From NCBI GenBank assembly GCA_008080735.1, contig SHMW01000085.1, positions 1-18,484 of the forward strand: a stretch of 18,484 bases of DNA, written 5' to 3'. The DNA is from Promethearchaeota archaeon (GTDB lineage: Archaea; Asgardarchaeota; Lokiarchaeia; Sigyniarchaeales; SOKP01). Shown one piece after another: positions 183 to 16,027 of the stretch (positions within the stretch are counted from its first letter, which is position 1; every line of letters starts with the position of its first letter). The notes under the pieces are model-generated. The model was not told the DNA's origin. It did not search any database and worked only from the letters and a program-made list of their open reading frames with translations. A program made the translations under genes and the position numbers.

Positions 183-3077
183 TTACTTTTGAGGTATAGT
201 AAAGAGAATAGTCGTTCCTTTATTTGGTCCTGGTGATTCTGCCCAGATTTCTCCCCCGTGCGCATTTACAATGCCCTTAGTGATATATAATCCAAGACCT
301 GTTCCACGGTATTTAACTTCATGTTTAATGGGACTTTTAATACGTTCAAATTTTCGAAATAATCGACCTATTTCGTTTGAATTCAATCCTAAACCATTAT
401 CTCTCACTTTAAATAAATATTCATCTTCATTCCGTTCTTTTCCGATTATTTTGATTTTCCCATTTTCTTTTGTGAATTTTATAGCATTAGATATAAGGTT
501 GGTAAATACTTGCGAAAGACGCTCTCTATCAATATTAATTATTTTGTTCTCGTCTATATCAATTAATACTTCGTGGTTTTTTTCTTTAATCTGGTATGAT
601 AGATCTTTGACACATTCTTCGATTAAATCACGTATATTTGTATCCTTTCGTTTCAGTTTGATTTTTTCCTCATCAATTTTCATTACTTCGAAAAGTTGAT
701 CCATAAGTTTTTCTAAGCGATTGACATTTTTTTTAATAGTTGCTAAGTCTTCTTTAACTTCCGTGTCTATATTTTCTGCATATTTCATTAATAAATAGTC
801 AGTGTAGCCAGAAATACTAATCAAGGGAGTTTTAAGTTCGTGAGCTGCATTTTGAATAAATTCGTTTTTTAAGTTATCTAAACGCTTAAGTTTAACGTTT
901 TGTTTTCGTAATTTCTCCTCTGATGCTCTTAATTCCCTGGTGCGTTCCATTACTTTTTTTTCTAGCTCTCTATTTAATTCCTTTAATTTTTCTTGTGACT
1001 CTTTAATTTTCTGCTGAGCTTTTTTATTTTCAGTGATATCTTGGATAATAACTTGAATTAGGGTCTCGTCTCCCAACTTAATAAGTGAGCCAATAACATT
1101 AATCCAGATTGCTCTATCTTTCGGTCGTTGAATTCGTACTTCGGTCGGTTTCAATTCTTTACCTTCTCTGATTTTTGAAAAGCGCTTTTTAAAATGAGAG
1201 ACTAGATGTTCAGATTTGTCGAGAAGAGAAAGGATTTCTGTGAAATTTTGTCCAATAAGATCCTCTTTGATGTGTTCAGTAAGTAATGTATTTGTAGTAG
1301 TATTACAATCTAAAATAGTTCCATCTAAACGGACTAACCAAATAGAATATGGGGAACCTTCAAATAAATATCGATATTTTTCTTCGGATTTTTTAAGCTG
1401 AGCTTCTGCTTTTTTTCTTTCTTCAATTTCTTTTTTTAATGCAAGTTCTGACTTTTTTCTTTCTGTAATATCATTAATAATCCCCCTTACTCCAACAATT
1501 TCTCCATTTTCATATATAGCTTTTGCATGACTGCGTCCATAAAAATAACTCCCATCCTTTTTTTGTAATAAAACATCATTTGGTTCGATTAGCTCTCCAT
1601 TCAGTATTTTATTAATATCTCTTATAGAAGGATCTAGATCTAATGGAGCGATAAATTCTGTAAATTTTATTCCCTTATAATCATCTTGAGAAATTCCAAA
1701 TTTTTCCAATCCAGATTTATTTACAAATGTTAATTCGAAATTTTTATTGAATTCATAGATGATTGCGGGTAGAGATTGTGCCAGATTCCGATATTTCTTT
1801 TCAGATTCTTTTAATTTTTTTTCTGCTTTAAGAAGCTTGGATATGTCATGAACTATACCTAATAATCCTGTAATTTCTTCATCTTTAAATAAAGGTCTTG
1901 AATGAAGCATCACGTATATTGATGATCCATCCTTTTTTATCATTTTATATTCATGAGCTTCCGTAATTTCACCATTTATGACTTTTTTAAAGTTTTTCTG
2001 GAGAAAAGTTAATTCTTCTTCTGGGAAAAAATTATTGATATGCATTTTTTCATAAATTTCTTCTGGTTTATAACCTAACATATGATAGGCTGCGGAATTA
2101 ACATATGTTATTATTCCTTCTTTATTTACAGTATAAACGACATCAGGCAGTAATTCGGTTAATTTTCTAAATCTCTTTTCACTTTGTTCTAAAGCTTTTT
2201 TTGATTTGGTTCGCTCTGTTATGTCTTCATATGCGATTAAGATCCCAATAACATCACCCGTTGAATCACGTAAAGGTACACGACTAACGTCTAGAAATCT
2301 TTCTTCATTTCCTACCTTAAACCATGATTCGATCTTATGAAATTCTGGATTTTTAGAATCTATAACTTTCTGCTCCCTCTCTGTGATATAGCTTCTGATA
2401 TCAATATTTTGATAAATTTCTCTATTTGTTTTACCTATTATAAGTTCTGGTTTTTCATATCCAATTACTCTAGCGAAATTGATATTACACCCCAAAAATG
2501 TGAGATTTTTATCCTTCCAAGCAATATATTGAGGCATTTGGTCGAGCACGAATTGAAGCATTTTAAGTGATTCTTTTAATGCACTCACACGCTGCTTCGG
2601 TTGTAATAGTTTCCAGAAACTAATTTCCGAGAGTGAATGGAACAAATCTCCATCTTTCTCATTTGACATTGTTTCCTCAGAAATCACAGATTTATCCTTG
2701 AAAATCTTGTTTAAAAGTAAGATAATTTTGCTATCTTGATCTCTATTATTTTTGAGAATACTCCCTTTTAGAATAAACCAAATAAATCCACCATTCTTAT
2801 TGATCAAGCGGATTTCAGTATTTACGATATGTCCTTTTTTTAATTGCTGGTGAAACTCAATAAATTTTTCTCGATCTTCATGATAAATAAAGGAAAGAAG
2901 GGAATCGTCTAATAATTCTTCAACGGAAAATCCAATTATACTTTTACTGTTATATCCAATATATTTTATTTTATAATTTTGATCAATAAGTATTGCCAAA
3001 TCATGAATATTTTTAATGAGTATTTTAATAAGATTGATGCTTTCTTCATTATTTAATAATTCAGTTAGTTCTGGCAT
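183..3077 (-). CDS. Soluble multi-PAS sensor histidine kinase (5 PAS/PAC, coiled coil, HisKA, HATPase_c)
   Basis: Repeated PAS/PAC units ending in DITE/DISK; H-box AAHELKTPL; N-box QVFTNLISNAIKF; G1 DNGLG; F-box LFRKF; G2 GTGLGL. No transmembrane segment seen. Confidence 0.95.
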   Translation of the reverse strand: MPELTELLNNEESINLIKILIKNIHDLAILIDQNYKIKYIGYNSKSIIGFSVEELLDDSLLSFIYHEDREKFIEFHQQLKKGHIVNTEIRLINKNGGFIWFILKGSILKNNRDQDSKIILLLNKIFKDKSVISEETMSNEKDGDLFHSLSEISFWKLLQPKQRVSALKESLKMLQFVLDQMPQYIAWKDKNLTFLGCNINFARVIGYEKPELIIGKTNREIYQNIDIRSYITEREQKVIDSKNPEFHKIESWFKVGNEERFLDVSRVPLRDSTGDVIGILIAYEDITERTKSKKALEQSEKRFRKLTELLPDVVYTVNKEGIITYVNSAAYHMLGYKPEEIYEKMHINNFFPEEELTFLQKNFKKVINGEITEAHEYKMIKKDGSSIYVMLHSRPLFKDEEITGLLGIVHDISKLLKAEKKLKESEKKYRNLAQSLPAIIYEFNKNFELTFVNKSGLEKFGISQDDYKGIKFTEFIAPLDLDPSIRDINKILNGELIEPNDVLLQKKDGSYFYGRSHAKAIYENGEIVGVRGIINDITERKKSELALKKEIEERKKAEAQLKKSEEKYRYLFEGSPYSIWLVRLDGTILDCNTTTNTLLTEHIKEDLIGQNFTEILSLLDKSEHLVSHFKKRFSKIREGKELKPTEVRIQRPKDRAIWINVIGSLIKLGDETLIQVIIQDITENKKAQQKIKESQEKLKELNRELEKKVMERTRELRASEEKLRKQNVKLKRLDNLKNEFIQNAAHELKTPLISISGYTDYLLMKYAENIDTEVKEDLATIKKNVNRLEKLMDQLFEVMKIDEEKIKLKRKDTNIRDLIEECVKDLSYQIKEKNHEVLIDIDENKIINIDRERLSQVFTNLISNAIKFTKENGKIKIIGKERNEDEYLFKVRDNGLGLNSNEIGRLFRKFERIKSPIKHEVKYRGTGLGLYITKGIVNAHGGEIWAESPGPNKGTTILFTIPQK

Positions 3078-3158: not shown

Positions 3159-6005
3159 TTAATCTACGGGAAGGGTAAATTTGAAAGTGCTACCCAAATT
3201 CTTTCCTTGAGATTCTGCCCAAATTTCTCCTCCATGTCCCTCAATTATTCCTTTAGAAATATATAGACCAAGTCCACTTCCTTTTGAGAACTTTTCTATA
3301 TCTTTTTCCAACATAACAAATTTTCCAAAAAGTTTTTCAATTTCACTTTCAACCAAACCAATTCCATTATCTTTCACACAACACAAAATTTTTTCCGCAT
3401 CATTCCTCTCAACGATAATTCGAATGTTTCCACCTTTCTGAGTAAATTTTATTGCGTTGCTCACTAAATTGGAAAATACTTGAGAGAGTCGAAATGGATC
3501 AACACGAGAAATAATTTGGTTATCTAGTCTAAAAGAGATCGAAATTTCTTTTTTCTGTATTTGATATTTCAAATCTTCAACGCATTCCTTCACTATGTTA
3601 GCAATATCTGTCTTTTGTTTATTAAAATCCATTTTCTGAGCATCTATTTTCATTGCGTCTAATAATTTATTGATATATTCCTCTAAACGCTTAGAATTAT
3701 TTAAAATACGTTCCAAATCTTCTCGAATCTCCGACTTTAGTTTTTGCTCTCTCAACAAGATCAAGTCAGTGTATCCAGATATAGAAATTAGAGGAGTTTT
3801 TAACTCATGTGCTGCCATGGTAATAAAGTCAGTTTTCAGTTGATCCAATTTTTTTAATTCTTTATTCTTTAGCTTTAATTCCCGCTCTGATTTTCTAAGT
3901 TTTAATTCTGCCACTTTTTTATCCGTAATATCCACAATAGAAATTAATTTTGCTTTTTTGCCTTGATATTTAATTCTTCTTATAAACACATCTAAATATT
4001 TCGTTTGTTGGGATTTAGTTATCATTCTTATCGAAAATTGTTTTGTAAATCCAAAAGAAGATTTTGATGTTTCATTCACTAATTCCATAAATTTTAATTT
4101 ATCTTTCGGATGGATGGATTCTACTATACTCTCCATTCCTAAATTTTCCATTTCTTCAATTTCCCAACCTAAAATAGAAGAGAGTGCTTTATTGGCATAT
4201 ATTAAGGTGTTATCTTGAATAAATGTGATACCTAATAGGGACTGCTCAGATATAGTTCGGAACTTCTCCTCTGATTCTCTCAATTTCTTCGTACGTTCTG
4301 AAATTTTCTTTTCTAATAACTTATTTAGTTTTTTTAACTTTTCCTCTGATTTCTTAATTTTCTCTTCATTTCTTTTCCTTTCAGTTATATCCCTTGAAAT
4401 TAATAACGCTTTTGATCTATTATCAGTATCATTAAAGATCCTCCCCTTCACATCTAACCATATCCATTTCCCGCTCTTATGTTTGAATCTTACTTCTTGT
4501 GATCCGGGTTTTTCTTTAGCAAAACTAAATTTCAATGTCTTAATTGCCCTTTTTCTATCATCGGGATGAAGATAATCAATACAAGATTGACCGATCAAAT
4601 CATCTTTTGAATATCCCAATCCCATTAGGTAAGGTTGTTTATTTATATATTCAAATTTTAGTTGATCATTAATTATTGTGATATAATCATTTGCATTTTC
4701 AGAAATAAGTCGATATCGCTCTTCAGACTTCTTTAATTTTTGCTGAAGTAGATATTTTTCTGTTATTTCTCGTAATAAACCACTGAATCCAATTTTATTT
4801 CCTTCAGAATCATATCTCAAATTAATTGAAGTCTCAACGTAAACTTCTTTTCCTTCTTTATCATATGCTTTATACTGAAAATCTTTAACGCTAGTTTCTG
4901 TCCTATATACATAATTAAATTTATTATATATCTTTTTATGTGTTGATTCATCACAGAATATTTTATAATTTATTCCAATAAACTCTTCGCCGTCATATCC
5001 CAGTAAATCTATAAATGCATCATTAGCAAAAGTAATATTACCCCTTAAATCTACTTCATAATATGATTCTTTAATATTTTCTAAAATATTTCGATATTTT
5101 TTCTCTGAAGCTCTTAATCTCTCTTCAGCTAGCTTGGATGAGGTCATATCTTGATACATAGATAAAATCCCGACAACTTCATCATTATCACCCGATAAAG
5201 GGATCCTATTTACATTAAAAATTAGTTTTTCTCCATTGGGAAGGATAAAAATTTCATTTTTTTTTAGGCTTGGTTTATTAGAACTAACCACTTCTTGTTC
5301 AATACGCCCAAATTCTTTAGCATAATTTCTAAATAGGGGGAGGTCCTTATTAGTTTTGCCAGTTATCTCACTTGGGTCGGTTAAACCAGCTAATTCGGAA
5401 AAGTTTTTGTTGCATCCTAAGAAATTTAAATTATCATCTTTCCAAAATACATAATGAGGAATATTATCCATTACCGTTTCGAGCATTTCTTGAGATTTTT
5501 GAACCGCACTTACGCATTTTTTAGGCTGCAGTAAACGCCAATATTTTATTTCAGGTACATATTCAGAAATCCATCGAAATCTGGCTCGAGCCTCTTCTAG
5601 ATTTTTCTCAAACATCTTTTCTTTATCAATATCCCTTGCAACTATGAAAATATTATCAAAGCCCAAAATATCTACTCTATTTATGGAGATCTCGCACCAG
5701 AAATACTCTTGTTTTTGCTTCTTTAATCTAATTTCCAAAGATTTACTGGTTTTTAATAAGCCATTATTCAATATATTAAGAAATTTATCAATATCTTCTT
5801 TGTGGATCAATTCCAAGAAAGATTCACCTACTAATTGACTTTGGGAAACCTTAAGAATTCGTTTTGCTTGGTTTTTGTTAATAAAATCAATTCGGAATTC
5901 ATTATTATCTCTAAGTATAAAGATAAGATCTTTAGTCTGCTGTAATAGGTGTTCTTGAATCCTTTCTAAAAAGTCTTTCTTAATAGTTGATTCCATTTTC
6001 CTCAA
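3159..6005 (-). CDS. Soluble multi-PAS sensor histidine kinase, paralog of the adjacent kinase
   Basis: 5 PAS/PAC units; H-box AAHELKTPLISISGY identical to the neighbour; N-box QVFSNLVSNAIKF; DNGIG; GSGLGL. The start may be the downstream ATG (MEST...). Confidence 0.95.
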   Translation of the reverse strand: MRKMESTIKKDFLERIQEHLLQQTKDLIFILRDNNEFRIDFINKNQAKRILKVSQSQLVGESFLELIHKEDIDKFLNILNNGLLKTSKSLEIRLKKQKQEYFWCEISINRVDILGFDNIFIVARDIDKEKMFEKNLEEARARFRWISEYVPEIKYWRLLQPKKCVSAVQKSQEMLETVMDNIPHYVFWKDDNLNFLGCNKNFSELAGLTDPSEITGKTNKDLPLFRNYAKEFGRIEQEVVSSNKPSLKKNEIFILPNGEKLIFNVNRIPLSGDNDEVVGILSMYQDMTSSKLAEERLRASEKKYRNILENIKESYYEVDLRGNITFANDAFIDLLGYDGEEFIGINYKIFCDESTHKKIYNKFNYVYRTETSVKDFQYKAYDKEGKEVYVETSINLRYDSEGNKIGFSGLLREITEKYLLQQKLKKSEERYRLISENANDYITIINDQLKFEYINKQPYLMGLGYSKDDLIGQSCIDYLHPDDRKRAIKTLKFSFAKEKPGSQEVRFKHKSGKWIWLDVKGRIFNDTDNRSKALLISRDITERKRNEEKIKKSEEKLKKLNKLLEKKISERTKKLRESEEKFRTISEQSLLGITFIQDNTLIYANKALSSILGWEIEEMENLGMESIVESIHPKDKLKFMELVNETSKSSFGFTKQFSIRMITKSQQTKYLDVFIRRIKYQGKKAKLISIVDITDKKVAELKLRKSERELKLKNKELKKLDQLKTDFITMAAHELKTPLISISGYTDLILLREQKLKSEIREDLERILNNSKRLEEYINKLLDAMKIDAQKMDFNKQKTDIANIVKECVEDLKYQIQKKEISISFRLDNQIISRVDPFRLSQVFSNLVSNAIKFTQKGGNIRIIVERNDAEKILCCVKDNGIGLVESEIEKLFGKFVMLEKDIEKFSKGSGLGLYISKGIIEGHGGEIWAESQGKNLGSTFKFTLPVD

Positions 6006-13671: not shown

Positions 13672-14157
13672 TTATAATTTTCCGAAAATCTCTTCTAAAC
13701 TTTTCTTCTTCTGTTCTTTTTCTAGAATTTTCCTCCAATTCGGCTCTATAGTATCGAAAGCTTGCTTGGTTAATTCCCTAATTTCTCCGTCTTCAGATGT
13801 CAAAAATTGTCCAATATATGCAAGAGCACGTTTATCTTTAATTCCTATTAAACTCTCGATTATAGCAATAATTCTATACTTATTTGGATGATCTTTTCCT
13901 TGTTCTAACATCAATTTTTCAAGAATTGCTCTTGTTGCTTTTGGGTTGCCGATTCTACCAAGAGCCTCTATCAGACGATTTATAACATTGAATTCCTCTT
14001 CCTTTTTCAGTGCCTTCACCATTAGATTTACGGCACGACCATCTTGCATGAATCCTAAAGTCCTGACAGCTTCAGCACGTTCTTTCCATTCCTCAGCATG
14101 AAACATATCCTTGATAAGTTCATTAAAATCGGCATCTCTTGATTTTTCTTCTGTCAT
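13672..14157 (-). CDS. HEAT-repeat (PBS lyase-like) protein
   Basis: Repeated units such as RAEAVRTLGFMQDGRAVNLM, IEALGRIGNPKATRAI and IESLIGIKDKRALAYI. Confidence 0.88.
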   Translation of the reverse strand: MTEEKSRDADFNELIKDMFHAEEWKERAEAVRTLGFMQDGRAVNLMVKALKKEEEFNVINRLIEALGRIGNPKATRAILEKLMLEQGKDHPNKYRIIAIIESLIGIKDKRALAYIGQFLTSEDGEIRELTKQAFDTIEPNWRKILEKEQKKKSLEEIFGKL

Positions 14158-14329
14158 TTCTTGGTTTCAAAATATTTTTGATTTTATTATAATTTGATGT
14201 TTATTTATTATAAAAAGCCTTCAGTACTAACTAATCTATAACTAGTAAATATTATAGATGAGGTCAAAAATTTTTACCACGAGTGTGCGAGAGCACCGTC
14301 CTTTAGGGCAGTAATGAATTGTATATAGG

Positions 14330-14337
14330 TTTAAATA
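14330..14337 (+). promoter_or_regulatory. TATA-box-like element inside the mini-IS (probable former tnpB promoter)
   Basis: TTTAAATA located 27 nt upstream of ATG 14365, a spacing consistent with an archaeal leaderless or near-leaderless transcript. Confidence 0.55.
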
Positions 14338-14384
14338 CTTGTATCCACATATTATTATTGAGAAATGATAACCAAGTTTCTCTA

Positions 14385-14486
14385 ACCGTAGGGAATACGG
14401 GGTTCGCGTTTGGAGAGGATGGAAGACTAATAGTAGGTCAGCAATCCCCGATGAATTACGAATCTCACGCCTTTAGGCGAGAGTAG
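14385..14486 (+). pseudogene. tnpB: Relic of the tnpB 3' end (C-terminal tail)
   Basis: Translates as TVGNTGFAFGEDGRLIVGQQSPMNYESHAFRRE*, matching the characteristic TnpB tail pattern TVGxTG...G......MxxESxAFRRx that overlaps the right end. No RuvC or zinc-finger sequence remains. Confidence 0.75.
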
Positions 14487-14510
14487 TTCACTTTATACAT
14501 AAATGGATAA
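14385..14510 (+). ncRNA. Candidate TnpB omega-RNA/reRNA (scaffold to about 14491 plus flank-derived guide)
   Basis: Hairpin CCGTA-GGGAA-TACGG (14386-14400), imperfect GGATGG/CAATCC stem with an inner GAC/GTC, then the right-end hairpin. The location matches known TnpB guide RNAs. Expression and boundaries are not shown by the sequence. Confidence 0.55.
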
Positions 14511-14704
14511 AGAGATAATATAAAATAAAATGATAGTACTATCCAAGGTAATAAAATAAAAAAGAGCTTTCAATCTCACGAAAATCCATCCTTGTAGAAC
14601 AAACCCCCCTTGAAAAATTAGTATTTTGAATCATTTTATCTAGAGATTTATTAACAAACTGCGTATATCAGAGTAGAGGTTATAATTTAGAAATAAAAAG
14701 AAGA

Positions 14705-16027
14705 TTATTTAGATAATATGGATTCCATGTGATCAATCCGTTTTTTGAGTAGTGATTGGGTACCCACGTCCTTTCTATGGAACAGATTTCCATGAATACA
14801 TCCGACACCTTTTTCTGCGATCTCTTCAGCCTTCTTAAGAGAGTCAGCAACACCCAATACACCCATAGCCCGGGAGGTAGTTGTATATACTTGTCCATCC
14901 TTTTTATAAACTGAGGCATAGTAATATCTGGCTCCGATATCCTTGAGTTTTTTAGTATCAATTTCTACTAATTGATCTTTCTTTGGAGATTTAGGATATC
15001 CTTCAGGTGCTAAATACTTACATACCGTCGCTTTTTTCTGGAATTCAATACTACTTGCTAAATTTTCATTAATAATTCCTTTACAAATATCGACAAAATT
15101 GGTTTTCAAAATAGGTAAGATATTCATCGCTTCAGGATCTCCGAGTCTTGCATTGAATTCTATGAGCTTGATACCATTCTTAGTTTTCATAAATTGACCA
15201 TAGAGGAATCCTTTATATTTCACACCGGTCTCAGCTTTAATTGCGGCGACGATGTTTTTCATATCTTCTAACGCATCCTCCACATCTTCTTGAGTAATAA
15301 ATGGCATAAGATGGTTTGCCATTGAATAGGAACCCATCCCACCCGTGTTAGGGCCCTTATCTCCTTCATAGGCTCTTTTATGGTCTTGAACCAAGGGGGT
15401 ACTTACCACATTTTCCCCGTCAACAAAGGTTTGAAGGGTAAATTCCTCACCCTCAATTTTCTCTTCCAGAATGAATTGTCGTTTTTGATCTATCAATTCT
15501 GTACAATAATTCACCATATCTTCTTTACTAAAAAGATGGTCTCCAAATACTTTCACACCTTTACCACCTGTTAGGCCATCTGGCTTAACAACAAGATTAA
15601 CCTCACCCATTTTATCTATATATTCCTCCACACCTTCCATACTTTTAAAACTTTTACTCTTCACGTTTGATTTAATTTTAAATTTTTCCATAAGGTTTCT
15701 CATAAAGATTTTTGAGCCCTCTATTTGAGCTGCCTCTATTTTAGGTCCCACGCAAGGAAATCCACTGCTTTCTATAGCATCAACAATTCCCACGCATAAT
15801 GGTTTCTCGGGACCAATTACTACAAAATCAATATTCTTTTCCTTACAAAAACTAATAATTGCTTTAAAATCCGTCTCAGAATGGATTCTTATACGATTTT
15901 TACTTAATTCATCTAATCCCGCATTTTTAAAACTCATAAAGGCATATAATTCTGCTCCACCGCGTACGAGGGCCTCACCAATGGCATGCTCACGAGCCCC
16001 ATGTCCTACAATTAAAATATTCGTCAT
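14705..16027 (-). CDS. purD: Phosphoribosylamine--glycine ligase (GAR synthetase)
   Basis: GHGAREHAI, VVIGPE, IEGSK, VVKPDGLTGGKGV, QDHKRAYEGDKGPNTGGMGSYS, EFNARLGDPE and PEGYP. Confidence 0.98.
   Translation of the reverse strand: MTNILIVGHGAREHAIGEALVRGGAELYAFMSFKNAGLDELSKNRIRIHSETDFKAIISFCKEKNIDFVVIGPEKPLCVGIVDAIESSGFPCVGPKIEAAQIEGSKIFMRNLMEKFKIKSNVKSKSFKSMEGVEEYIDKMGEVNLVVKPDGLTGGKGVKVFGDHLFSKEDMVNYCTELIDQKRQFILEEKIEGEEFTLQTFVDGENVVSTPLVQDHKRAYEGDKGPNTGGMGSYSMANHLMPFITQEDVEDALEDMKNIVAAIKAETGVKYKGFLYGQFMKTKNGIKLIEFNARLGDPEAMNILPILKTNFVDICKGIINENLASSIEFQKKATVCKYLAPEGYPKSPKKDQLVEIDTKKLKDIGARYYYASVYKKDGQVYTTTSRAMGVLGVADSLKKAEEIAEKGVGCIHGNLFHRKDVGTQSLLKKRIDHMESILSK

Follow-up and report, generated by a model that had tools for sequence, protein, structure and literature searches.

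A protein-less IS605-type mini-element as a candidate stand-alone guide-RNA cassette in a Loki-type Asgard archaeon

A 214-base stretch of DNA from a Loki-type Asgard archaeon is, as judged from its sequence, a protein-less, PATE-like deletion derivative of an IS605-type (tnpA plus tnpB) IS200/IS605 element, and it probably acts as a stand-alone omega-RNA cassette that is served in trans by TnpB (probability about 0.62). The evidence consists of its homology, the distribution of its copies, covariation in its scaffold, the spacing of its promoter box and the presence of partner genes, all observed in the genomes compared. The source DNA (GCA_008080735.1, contig SHMW01000085.1) is that of a Promethearchaeota archaeon (Lokiarchaeia; Sigyniarchaeales; SOKP01). 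The window, that is, the whole stretch of DNA analysed (18,484 nucleotides), is a complete 18.5-kb contig (C85) of a 4.1-Mb genome assembled in 140 contigs. The element lies inside a 547-bp gap (14158-14704) between two genes:

13672-14157, minus strand: HEAT-repeat gene, one flank of the gap that holds the mini-element
14705-16027, minus strand: purD, the other flank of this gap

No open reading frame of at least 60 amino acids was found in the gap, and the tRNA and tmRNA searches found none there. Rfam returned zero matches in the window at the gathering threshold, and only two chance-level matches at E values up to 10, both outside the mini-element; a CRISPR-DR44 match at 14219-14257 (E 1.5) was rejected as chance. 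The HEAT-purD order is kept in five congeners, with spacers of 62-174 bp that do not contain the mini-element. The exact empty site could not be aligned in these congeners, since the spacers are too diverged, but the lack of the element in all five indicates that the insertion is specific to the source lineage. The ~190 bp of spacer located 3′ of the element (14510-14700) have no counterpart in the shorter congener spacers (n = 5) and are unique within the genome. Elsewhere in the window, two adjacent and similar multi-PAS histidine kinase genes (183-3077 and 3159-6005, minus strand; 964 and 948 amino acids) are probably a tandem duplication.

The original prediction, made from this DNA before the present analysis, had described a miniature IS200/IS605 element of which the two ends, a promoter box and the scaffold of a TnpB guide RNA were left, and all the features it listed were found where it had placed them. 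Apart from the scaffold helices, the anatomy is as follows:

14273-14277, plus strand: TTTAC insertion target motif, directly 5′ of the left end; also the predicted TAM of the cognate TnpB
14278-14491, plus strand: mini-element of 214 bases, which has lost both enzymes and kept both ends, the promoter box and the scaffold
14278-14319, plus strand: left end; 25 sibling minis and the IS605-type parent L058 have homologous left ends
14285-14296, plus strand: small left-end hairpin of 4 bp
14294-14313, plus strand: subterminal left-end hairpin with 8-nt arms, a TTTA loop and two mismatches
14330-14337, plus strand: TATA-box-like octamer of archaeal type, TTTAAATA, which starts 30 nt before helix 1
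14365-14385, plus strand: MITKFL* frame (ATG to TAA), 6 codons, inside helix 1
14385-14486, plus strand: relic TnpB C-terminal frame, 33 codons, open; it overlaps the scaffold and is not a gene
14464-14491, plus strand: right end, formed by helix 5, TAG and the terminal TTCAC; 81% identical to the right end on contig C91
14487-14491, plus strand: terminal TTCAC (family consensus terminus, TTCAA)
14492-14511, plus strand: predicted guide of 16-20 nt, in the unique flank that adjoins the right end on its 3′ side

The MITKFL* frame is present as described, but it is part of helix 1 and not a gene remnant, because it lies inside a scaffold helix and the short frames of the siblings vary in length. 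Translation of MITKFL or of the 33-codon tail was also considered and rejected, since these frames are not conserved among siblings. The tail frame matches the TnpB fragment on C91 with 49% identity over 43 amino acids (tblastn).

The proposed derivation from a tnpB with matching ends in the same genome is borne out by contig C91, where the 3′ end of a tnpB together with its right end is 81% identical to window positions 14386-14490 (E 5e-20). The C91 gene encodes a C-terminal TnpB fragment of 214 amino acids at the contig end, with OrfB_IS605 and TNB domains, which aligns to residues 211-372 of ISDra2 TnpB (E 1e-36) and keeps the ED and HDRD motifs. The fragment covers the C-terminal half of the protein; the first RuvC aspartate belongs to the N-terminal half, which lies outside the assembled sequence. 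The one Y1_Tnp match of the genome is found at C36:69-437 (E 7e-36), and this TnpA is 82% identical to that of the parent element on contig C39 of a congeneric genome (G002). On C36 (1-560, L029) tnpA is located at the contig edge and is followed by the first 16 codons of tnpB. The left-end hairpin that is present in the parent seems to be missing upstream of this copy, which may be a 5′-truncated, immobile IS605 that still encodes the enzymes, and the C36 and C91 pieces may be one element split by assembly.

On the congeneric contig G002:C39, TTTAC and the same left end are followed by two TATA-like boxes and then by a Y1 tnpA and tnpB, a layout which identifies the parent as an IS605-type element. 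The N-terminal part of its TnpB is a 281-residue open reading frame, which has a 72-residue overlap with the C91 fragment (92% identity). The minis track the parent up to the loop of a left-end-proximal hairpin and rejoin it just before helix 2 of the tnpB tail, and the 3′ arm of mini helix 1 is most like a left-end-proximal segment of the parent; compared in this way, the sequences suggest that the minis arose by two deletions. The left-end side of the parent, and not tnpB, is the source of helix 1 and the promoter. Full-length tnpB genes have a different hairpin of 6-7 bp, located a few bases before helix 2 and within the open reading frame, so the mini has replaced a tnpB-embedded helix with a left-end-derived one.

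The designation as PATE-like is based on several features. No transposase or other open reading frame lies between the ends, which bear hairpins and are homologous to those of a tnpA/tnpB element (G002:C39 for the left end, C91 for the right). Insertion took place 3′ of a fixed motif, TTTAC, at many unrelated sites, the orthologous site is polymorphic for presence and absence of the element among the source genome and its five congeners, and a Y1 TnpA is available in trans (C36).

Sibling copies with the same junction, which the original prediction had suggested looking for, occur by the dozen in related genomes. We collected 25 complete minis of 214-301 bp with a common layout, plus one 99-bp version. 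Of the 26 complete siblings that were aligned, about 22 directly follow TTTAC, as does the G002:C39 parent, and the 3′ flanks differ in every sibling copy. The window copy is 80-83% identical to its nearest siblings and is the only member of its subfamily in its own genome; a closer sibling and the window-specific helix 1 were sought in metagenomes, with no match. The 99-bp micro-element (L070, G009:C85:50049-50147) consists of little more than its ends, ~35 nt from the left and 57 nt from the right, and has the window-type variant of the right hairpin (93% identity to window 14437-14490). A 301-bp mini (L079, G001:C334:2292-2596) carries an internal tandem duplication over the TATA box, helix 1 and the start of helix 2. 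There is also a sister mini family of ~300 bp (L044, L049, L053, L135 and L172), members of which occur on many contigs of G008, a genome with at least 53 scaffold matches. This family has its own left hairpin and a longer helix 1 with the same core scaffold.

Searches at the DNA level and with the covariance model returned at least 53, at least 41, at least 23, at least 16 and at least 12 scaffold matches in five related genomes, counts which are lower bounds and include tnpB tails and relics. At least one scaffold copy is present in 17 of the 41 sampled genomes of the family. A tnpB open reading frame is absent upstream of most sampled scaffold matches, and the scaffold-rich relatives have ~1-4 long tnpB open reading frames per assembly. 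This suggests that guide cassettes are commoner than nuclease genes for this element in some Lokiarchaeia, with a guide-to-nuclease ratio that is provisional because MAGs under-assemble repeats. An exact-pattern scan of 185,579 species genomes with the scaffold core gave 44 matches, all of them in Promethearchaeota, Promethearchaeia or Helarchaeota MAGs, in agreement with the Asgard host that had been considered probable. Metagenomes contained 47 further matches to the core, about half of them with a full-length tnpB, and viral contigs contained none. A metagenome locus (L211) carries a full-length gene that is 86% identical to the cognate tnpB.

A dispersed guide library, as the original prediction envisaged, does not exist for this subfamily in the source genome, where it is single-copy; there are dozens of copies in relatives, and five minis of a related subfamily in the source genome itself. 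The latter, of ~330-480 bp, have the 5′ end of tnpA joined to the tnpB tail at one shared junction, and retain the last ~30 tnpB codons and the scaffold:

C3:122603-123090, minus strand: second-subfamily mini
C9:22118-22600, minus strand: second-subfamily mini
C1:39050-39495, plus strand: second-subfamily mini
C2:96640-97073, plus strand: second-subfamily mini
C30:35058-35400, minus strand: second-subfamily mini with a further internal deletion

The same genome also has a decayed tnpB (C1:103935-104567, L097/L110), interrupted by 7 in-frame stops, behind which the scaffold and right end can still be recognised.

To describe the scaffold, which is ~132 nt long and homologous to the 3′ end of tnpB plus the right end, we read a structure of five helices by hand from the alignment and then tested it for covariation. 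In the window copy its parts are:

14360-14366 with 14376-14382, plus strand: helix 1, 7 bp, 9-nt loop
14386-14400, plus strand: helix 2, 5 of the 6 family pairs formed, 5-nt loop
14415-14420 with 14444-14449, plus strand: helix 3, 5 of 6 pairs, with one A-C mismatch; it encloses helix 4
14427-14430 with 14438-14441, plus strand: helix 4, 3 of 4 pairs
14450-14464, plus strand: single-stranded core of 15 nt, nearly invariant
14464-14471 with 14476-14483, plus strand: helix 5, which is the right-end subterminal hairpin, 7 of 8 pairs

An alternative register of helix 4 (14425-14428 with 14436-14439) forms 4 of 4 pairs. With the family covariance model the window copy scores 131 bits (E 1.6e-24), within a family range of ~70-171.

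A covariance model had been proposed as a check, and the stems show compensatory changes rather than decay. Among the 28 minis alone, 89.8% of the cells are paired, versus 32-48% in slid controls, and 12 pairs are changed on both sides (5-8 in the controls), a value which none of 500 shuffles reached. For 75 distinct sequences, whose alignment was fitted to the covariance model and is therefore biased towards the tested structure, 89.2% of the cells are paired (25-46% in slid controls) and 28 of the 31 pairs change on both sides, again with 0 of 500 shuffles as high. In this larger alignment, two-sided changes affect 268 cells and are found in each helix: the covarying pairs are 7 of 7 in helix 1, 6 of 6 in helix 2, 5 of 6 in helix 3, 3 of 4 in helix 4 and 7 of 8 in helix 5. 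Some copies, such as G009_C32, have entirely different helix 3 and helix 4 sequences with the pairing preserved, and the columns of the core are mostly invariant or at least 90% conserved among the 28 minis. The TnpB tail frame is kept in 2 of the 28 minis and is shifted or broken in the other 26, with 1-nt and 4-nt insertions being common, so coding constraint cannot explain this conservation; common descent could account for part of it, for the structure as well as for the TATA box. The scaffold thus combines homology to the tnpB 3′ end and right end with a conserved secondary structure, as for an omega-RNA.

RNAalifold gave a poor consensus (-6.7 kcal/mol) on a MAFFT alignment, owing to misalignment of the window-type rows at helices 1 and 5, and the hand-read structure was used instead. 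The long-range pairing in the RNAalifold consensus, between the loop side of helix 2 and the last bases before the guide, shows almost no informative variation. The window RNA has an energy of -34.1 kcal/mol in the family fold versus -37.2 kcal/mol in its minimum free energy (MFE) fold (z = -2.2), and single-sequence folding was not used as evidence because this MFE fold is unlike that of the family.

The placement of a promoter directly upstream of the scaffold is supported by its spacing. Among 38 distinct window-type minis, 29 have a strict TATA-like octamer that begins 29-31 nt ahead of helix 1, despite a distance from left end to helix 1 that varies between 55 and 141 nt, and conservation of the octamer is 0.75, versus 0.56-0.57 in its flanks. 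In the window copy the octamer starts 30 nt before helix 1, which, by analogy with the usual archaeal spacing between TATA box and transcription start, places the predicted start near 14360, the first base of helix 1. In the sister mini family that is abundant in G008, the TATA box lies 33 nt before its own helix 1.

The function of the mini-element is probably to keep itself in place, and we infer transcription, TnpB loading and cleavage as follows. After insertion behind TTTAC in the HEAT-purD spacer, an RNA would be made from the element's own TATA promoter, starting at the first scaffold base and running into the flank. Directly 3′ of the right end this flank is different in every copy, and by analogy with known TnpB guide RNAs it would serve as the guide. 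The cognate TnpB, encoded by the C36/C91 element at another place in the genome, would bind this RNA in trans. If TnpA excises the mini-element, the TTTAC-plus-guide site is formed again and would be cut by the complex. Recombination with a sister chromosome copy still carrying the element would then restore it, so that the mini-element would exploit TnpA for mobility and TnpB for retention.

The main rival to this retention model is that the window copy is a dead relic, a single insertion which is immobile, makes no useful RNA and drifts, while the family signals describe its active relatives. The original prediction had allowed for a decaying relic, and the window copy is indeed somewhat eroded, with one mismatch in each of helices 2-5. 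The family consensus matches the IS608 tetranucleotides at four positions: TTAC precedes the left end, AAAG and GAAT stand before the left and right hairpins, respectively, and TCAA closes the right terminus. The window copy departs from this code at two of the four. It has AGAG (14290-14293) instead of AAAG before the foot of the left hairpin, owing to a 2-nt deletion in the preceding A run, and TCAC instead of TCAA at the terminus; GAAT is kept (14460-14463), inside the core, at the position of the IS608-type right-end guide tetranucleotide. Together with the two mismatches of the left hairpin, these changes mean that the window copy may be immobile, and its single-copy status, its distance of 80-83% identity from the nearest siblings and the lack of a closer relative in metagenomes also point towards a relic. 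On the other hand, the stems of the family are compensated, the TATA octamer of the window copy is a perfect consensus at the family spacing, and its helix 1, in which two pairs differ from the family consensus on both sides, still pairs at 7 of 7 positions. The 131-bit score falls within the family range and the near-invariant 15-nt core is intact. Moreover, production of a guide RNA does not depend on mobility, and by analogy with IS608-type ends the altered termini may impair excision by TnpA without preventing RNA production. We consider the relic reading a serious one, although clearly the less likely of the two.

The element could alternatively have been taken over by the host, with its guide steering TnpB, or a TnpB-like protein that has lost nuclease activity, to a target in the host or in a virus, or with read-through producing an antisense RNA to the 3′ end of purD. 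TnpB-derived RNA-guided repressors (TldR) do exist, and the element is oriented towards the convergent purD, whose 3′ end is located 213 nt downstream on the opposite strand. However, the predicted guide has no second TTTAC-adjacent match in its own genome, which fits self-retention better than host targeting, and both the absence of the scaffold core from viral contigs and the five congeners without the element at the HEAT-purD locus make a host role very unlikely. Marginally less probable still is a plain PATE or MITE whose interior is conserved for the DNA needs of TnpA (single-strand hairpins and end recognition), for although helix 5 and the left hairpin would be TnpA recognition hairpins by analogy with IS608 and the 99-bp L070 shows that ends alone can persist, helices 1-4 covary outside the parts that TnpA needs in IS608-type elements, the same helices are kept inside the open reading frames of full-length tnpB, and the distance from TATA box to helix 1 is fixed.

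The guide-only cassette read here in the window can be compared with three known systems. PATEs of the IS200/IS605 family were named first in Haloquadratum walsbyi (PMC3119063) and are also seen in Geobacillus stearothermophilus; according to Meers et al. (2023, PMC10055086), PATEs in many cases encode omega-RNAs that depend on TnpB supplied in trans. Like the Asgard mini, PATEs are protein-less, have the ends of autonomous members and are mobilised in trans. In contrast to them, the Asgard mini is found in an Asgard host, has its own archaeal TATA box fixed 30 nt from the scaffold, and carries a left-end-derived 5′ helix in place of the tnpB-embedded one. Stand-alone omega-RNAs are described as mobilised and working in trans (Altae-Tran et al. 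2021, as summarised in PMC10691335); according to that summary they resemble the Asgard mini in having neither effector nor transposase, with effector loci elsewhere in the genome. Their activity in trans is presented there as demonstrated, whereas for the Asgard mini we infer it, and in sequence the Asgard family forms a lineage of its own, with matches in Loki- and Hel-type Asgard MAGs only. The third system, ISDra2 TnpB with its right-end-derived guide RNA (Karvelis et al. 2021, PMC8612924; structures 8EXA, 8BF8 and 8H1J), likewise has a scaffold that overlaps the 3′ end of tnpB and the right end and takes its guide from the flank. The Asgard mini differs from it by an unrelated RNA sequence with no Rfam match, a predicted TAM of TTTAC and the lack of an effector in cis.

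As PATE omega-RNAs and stand-alone omega-RNAs are both published, the Asgard mini is not a new kind of element. Guide cassettes without proteins are known from bacteria, and the concept is already set out in Meers 2023 and in Altae-Tran 2021 and 2023; what is new is the archaeal family; our literature search found no paper on guide-only minis in Asgard archaea. The family thus provides an archaeal, Asgard example of a guide-RNA-only IS605 derivative that is backed by comparative genomics. With five covarying helices, a predicted TTTAC TAM and a predicted promoter, the RNA, its partner TnpB and the retention model are directly testable. It is a bolder and doubtful proposition that self-promoted guide-only minis are the main suppliers of TnpB guides in some Lokiarchaeial genomes. 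If this is true, they would form a dispersed, transposon-borne set of guides, intermediate between single-guide TnpB elements and arrayed CRISPR guides; alternatively, where guide-only minis dominate, they may represent a guide-only hyperparasite of TnpB.
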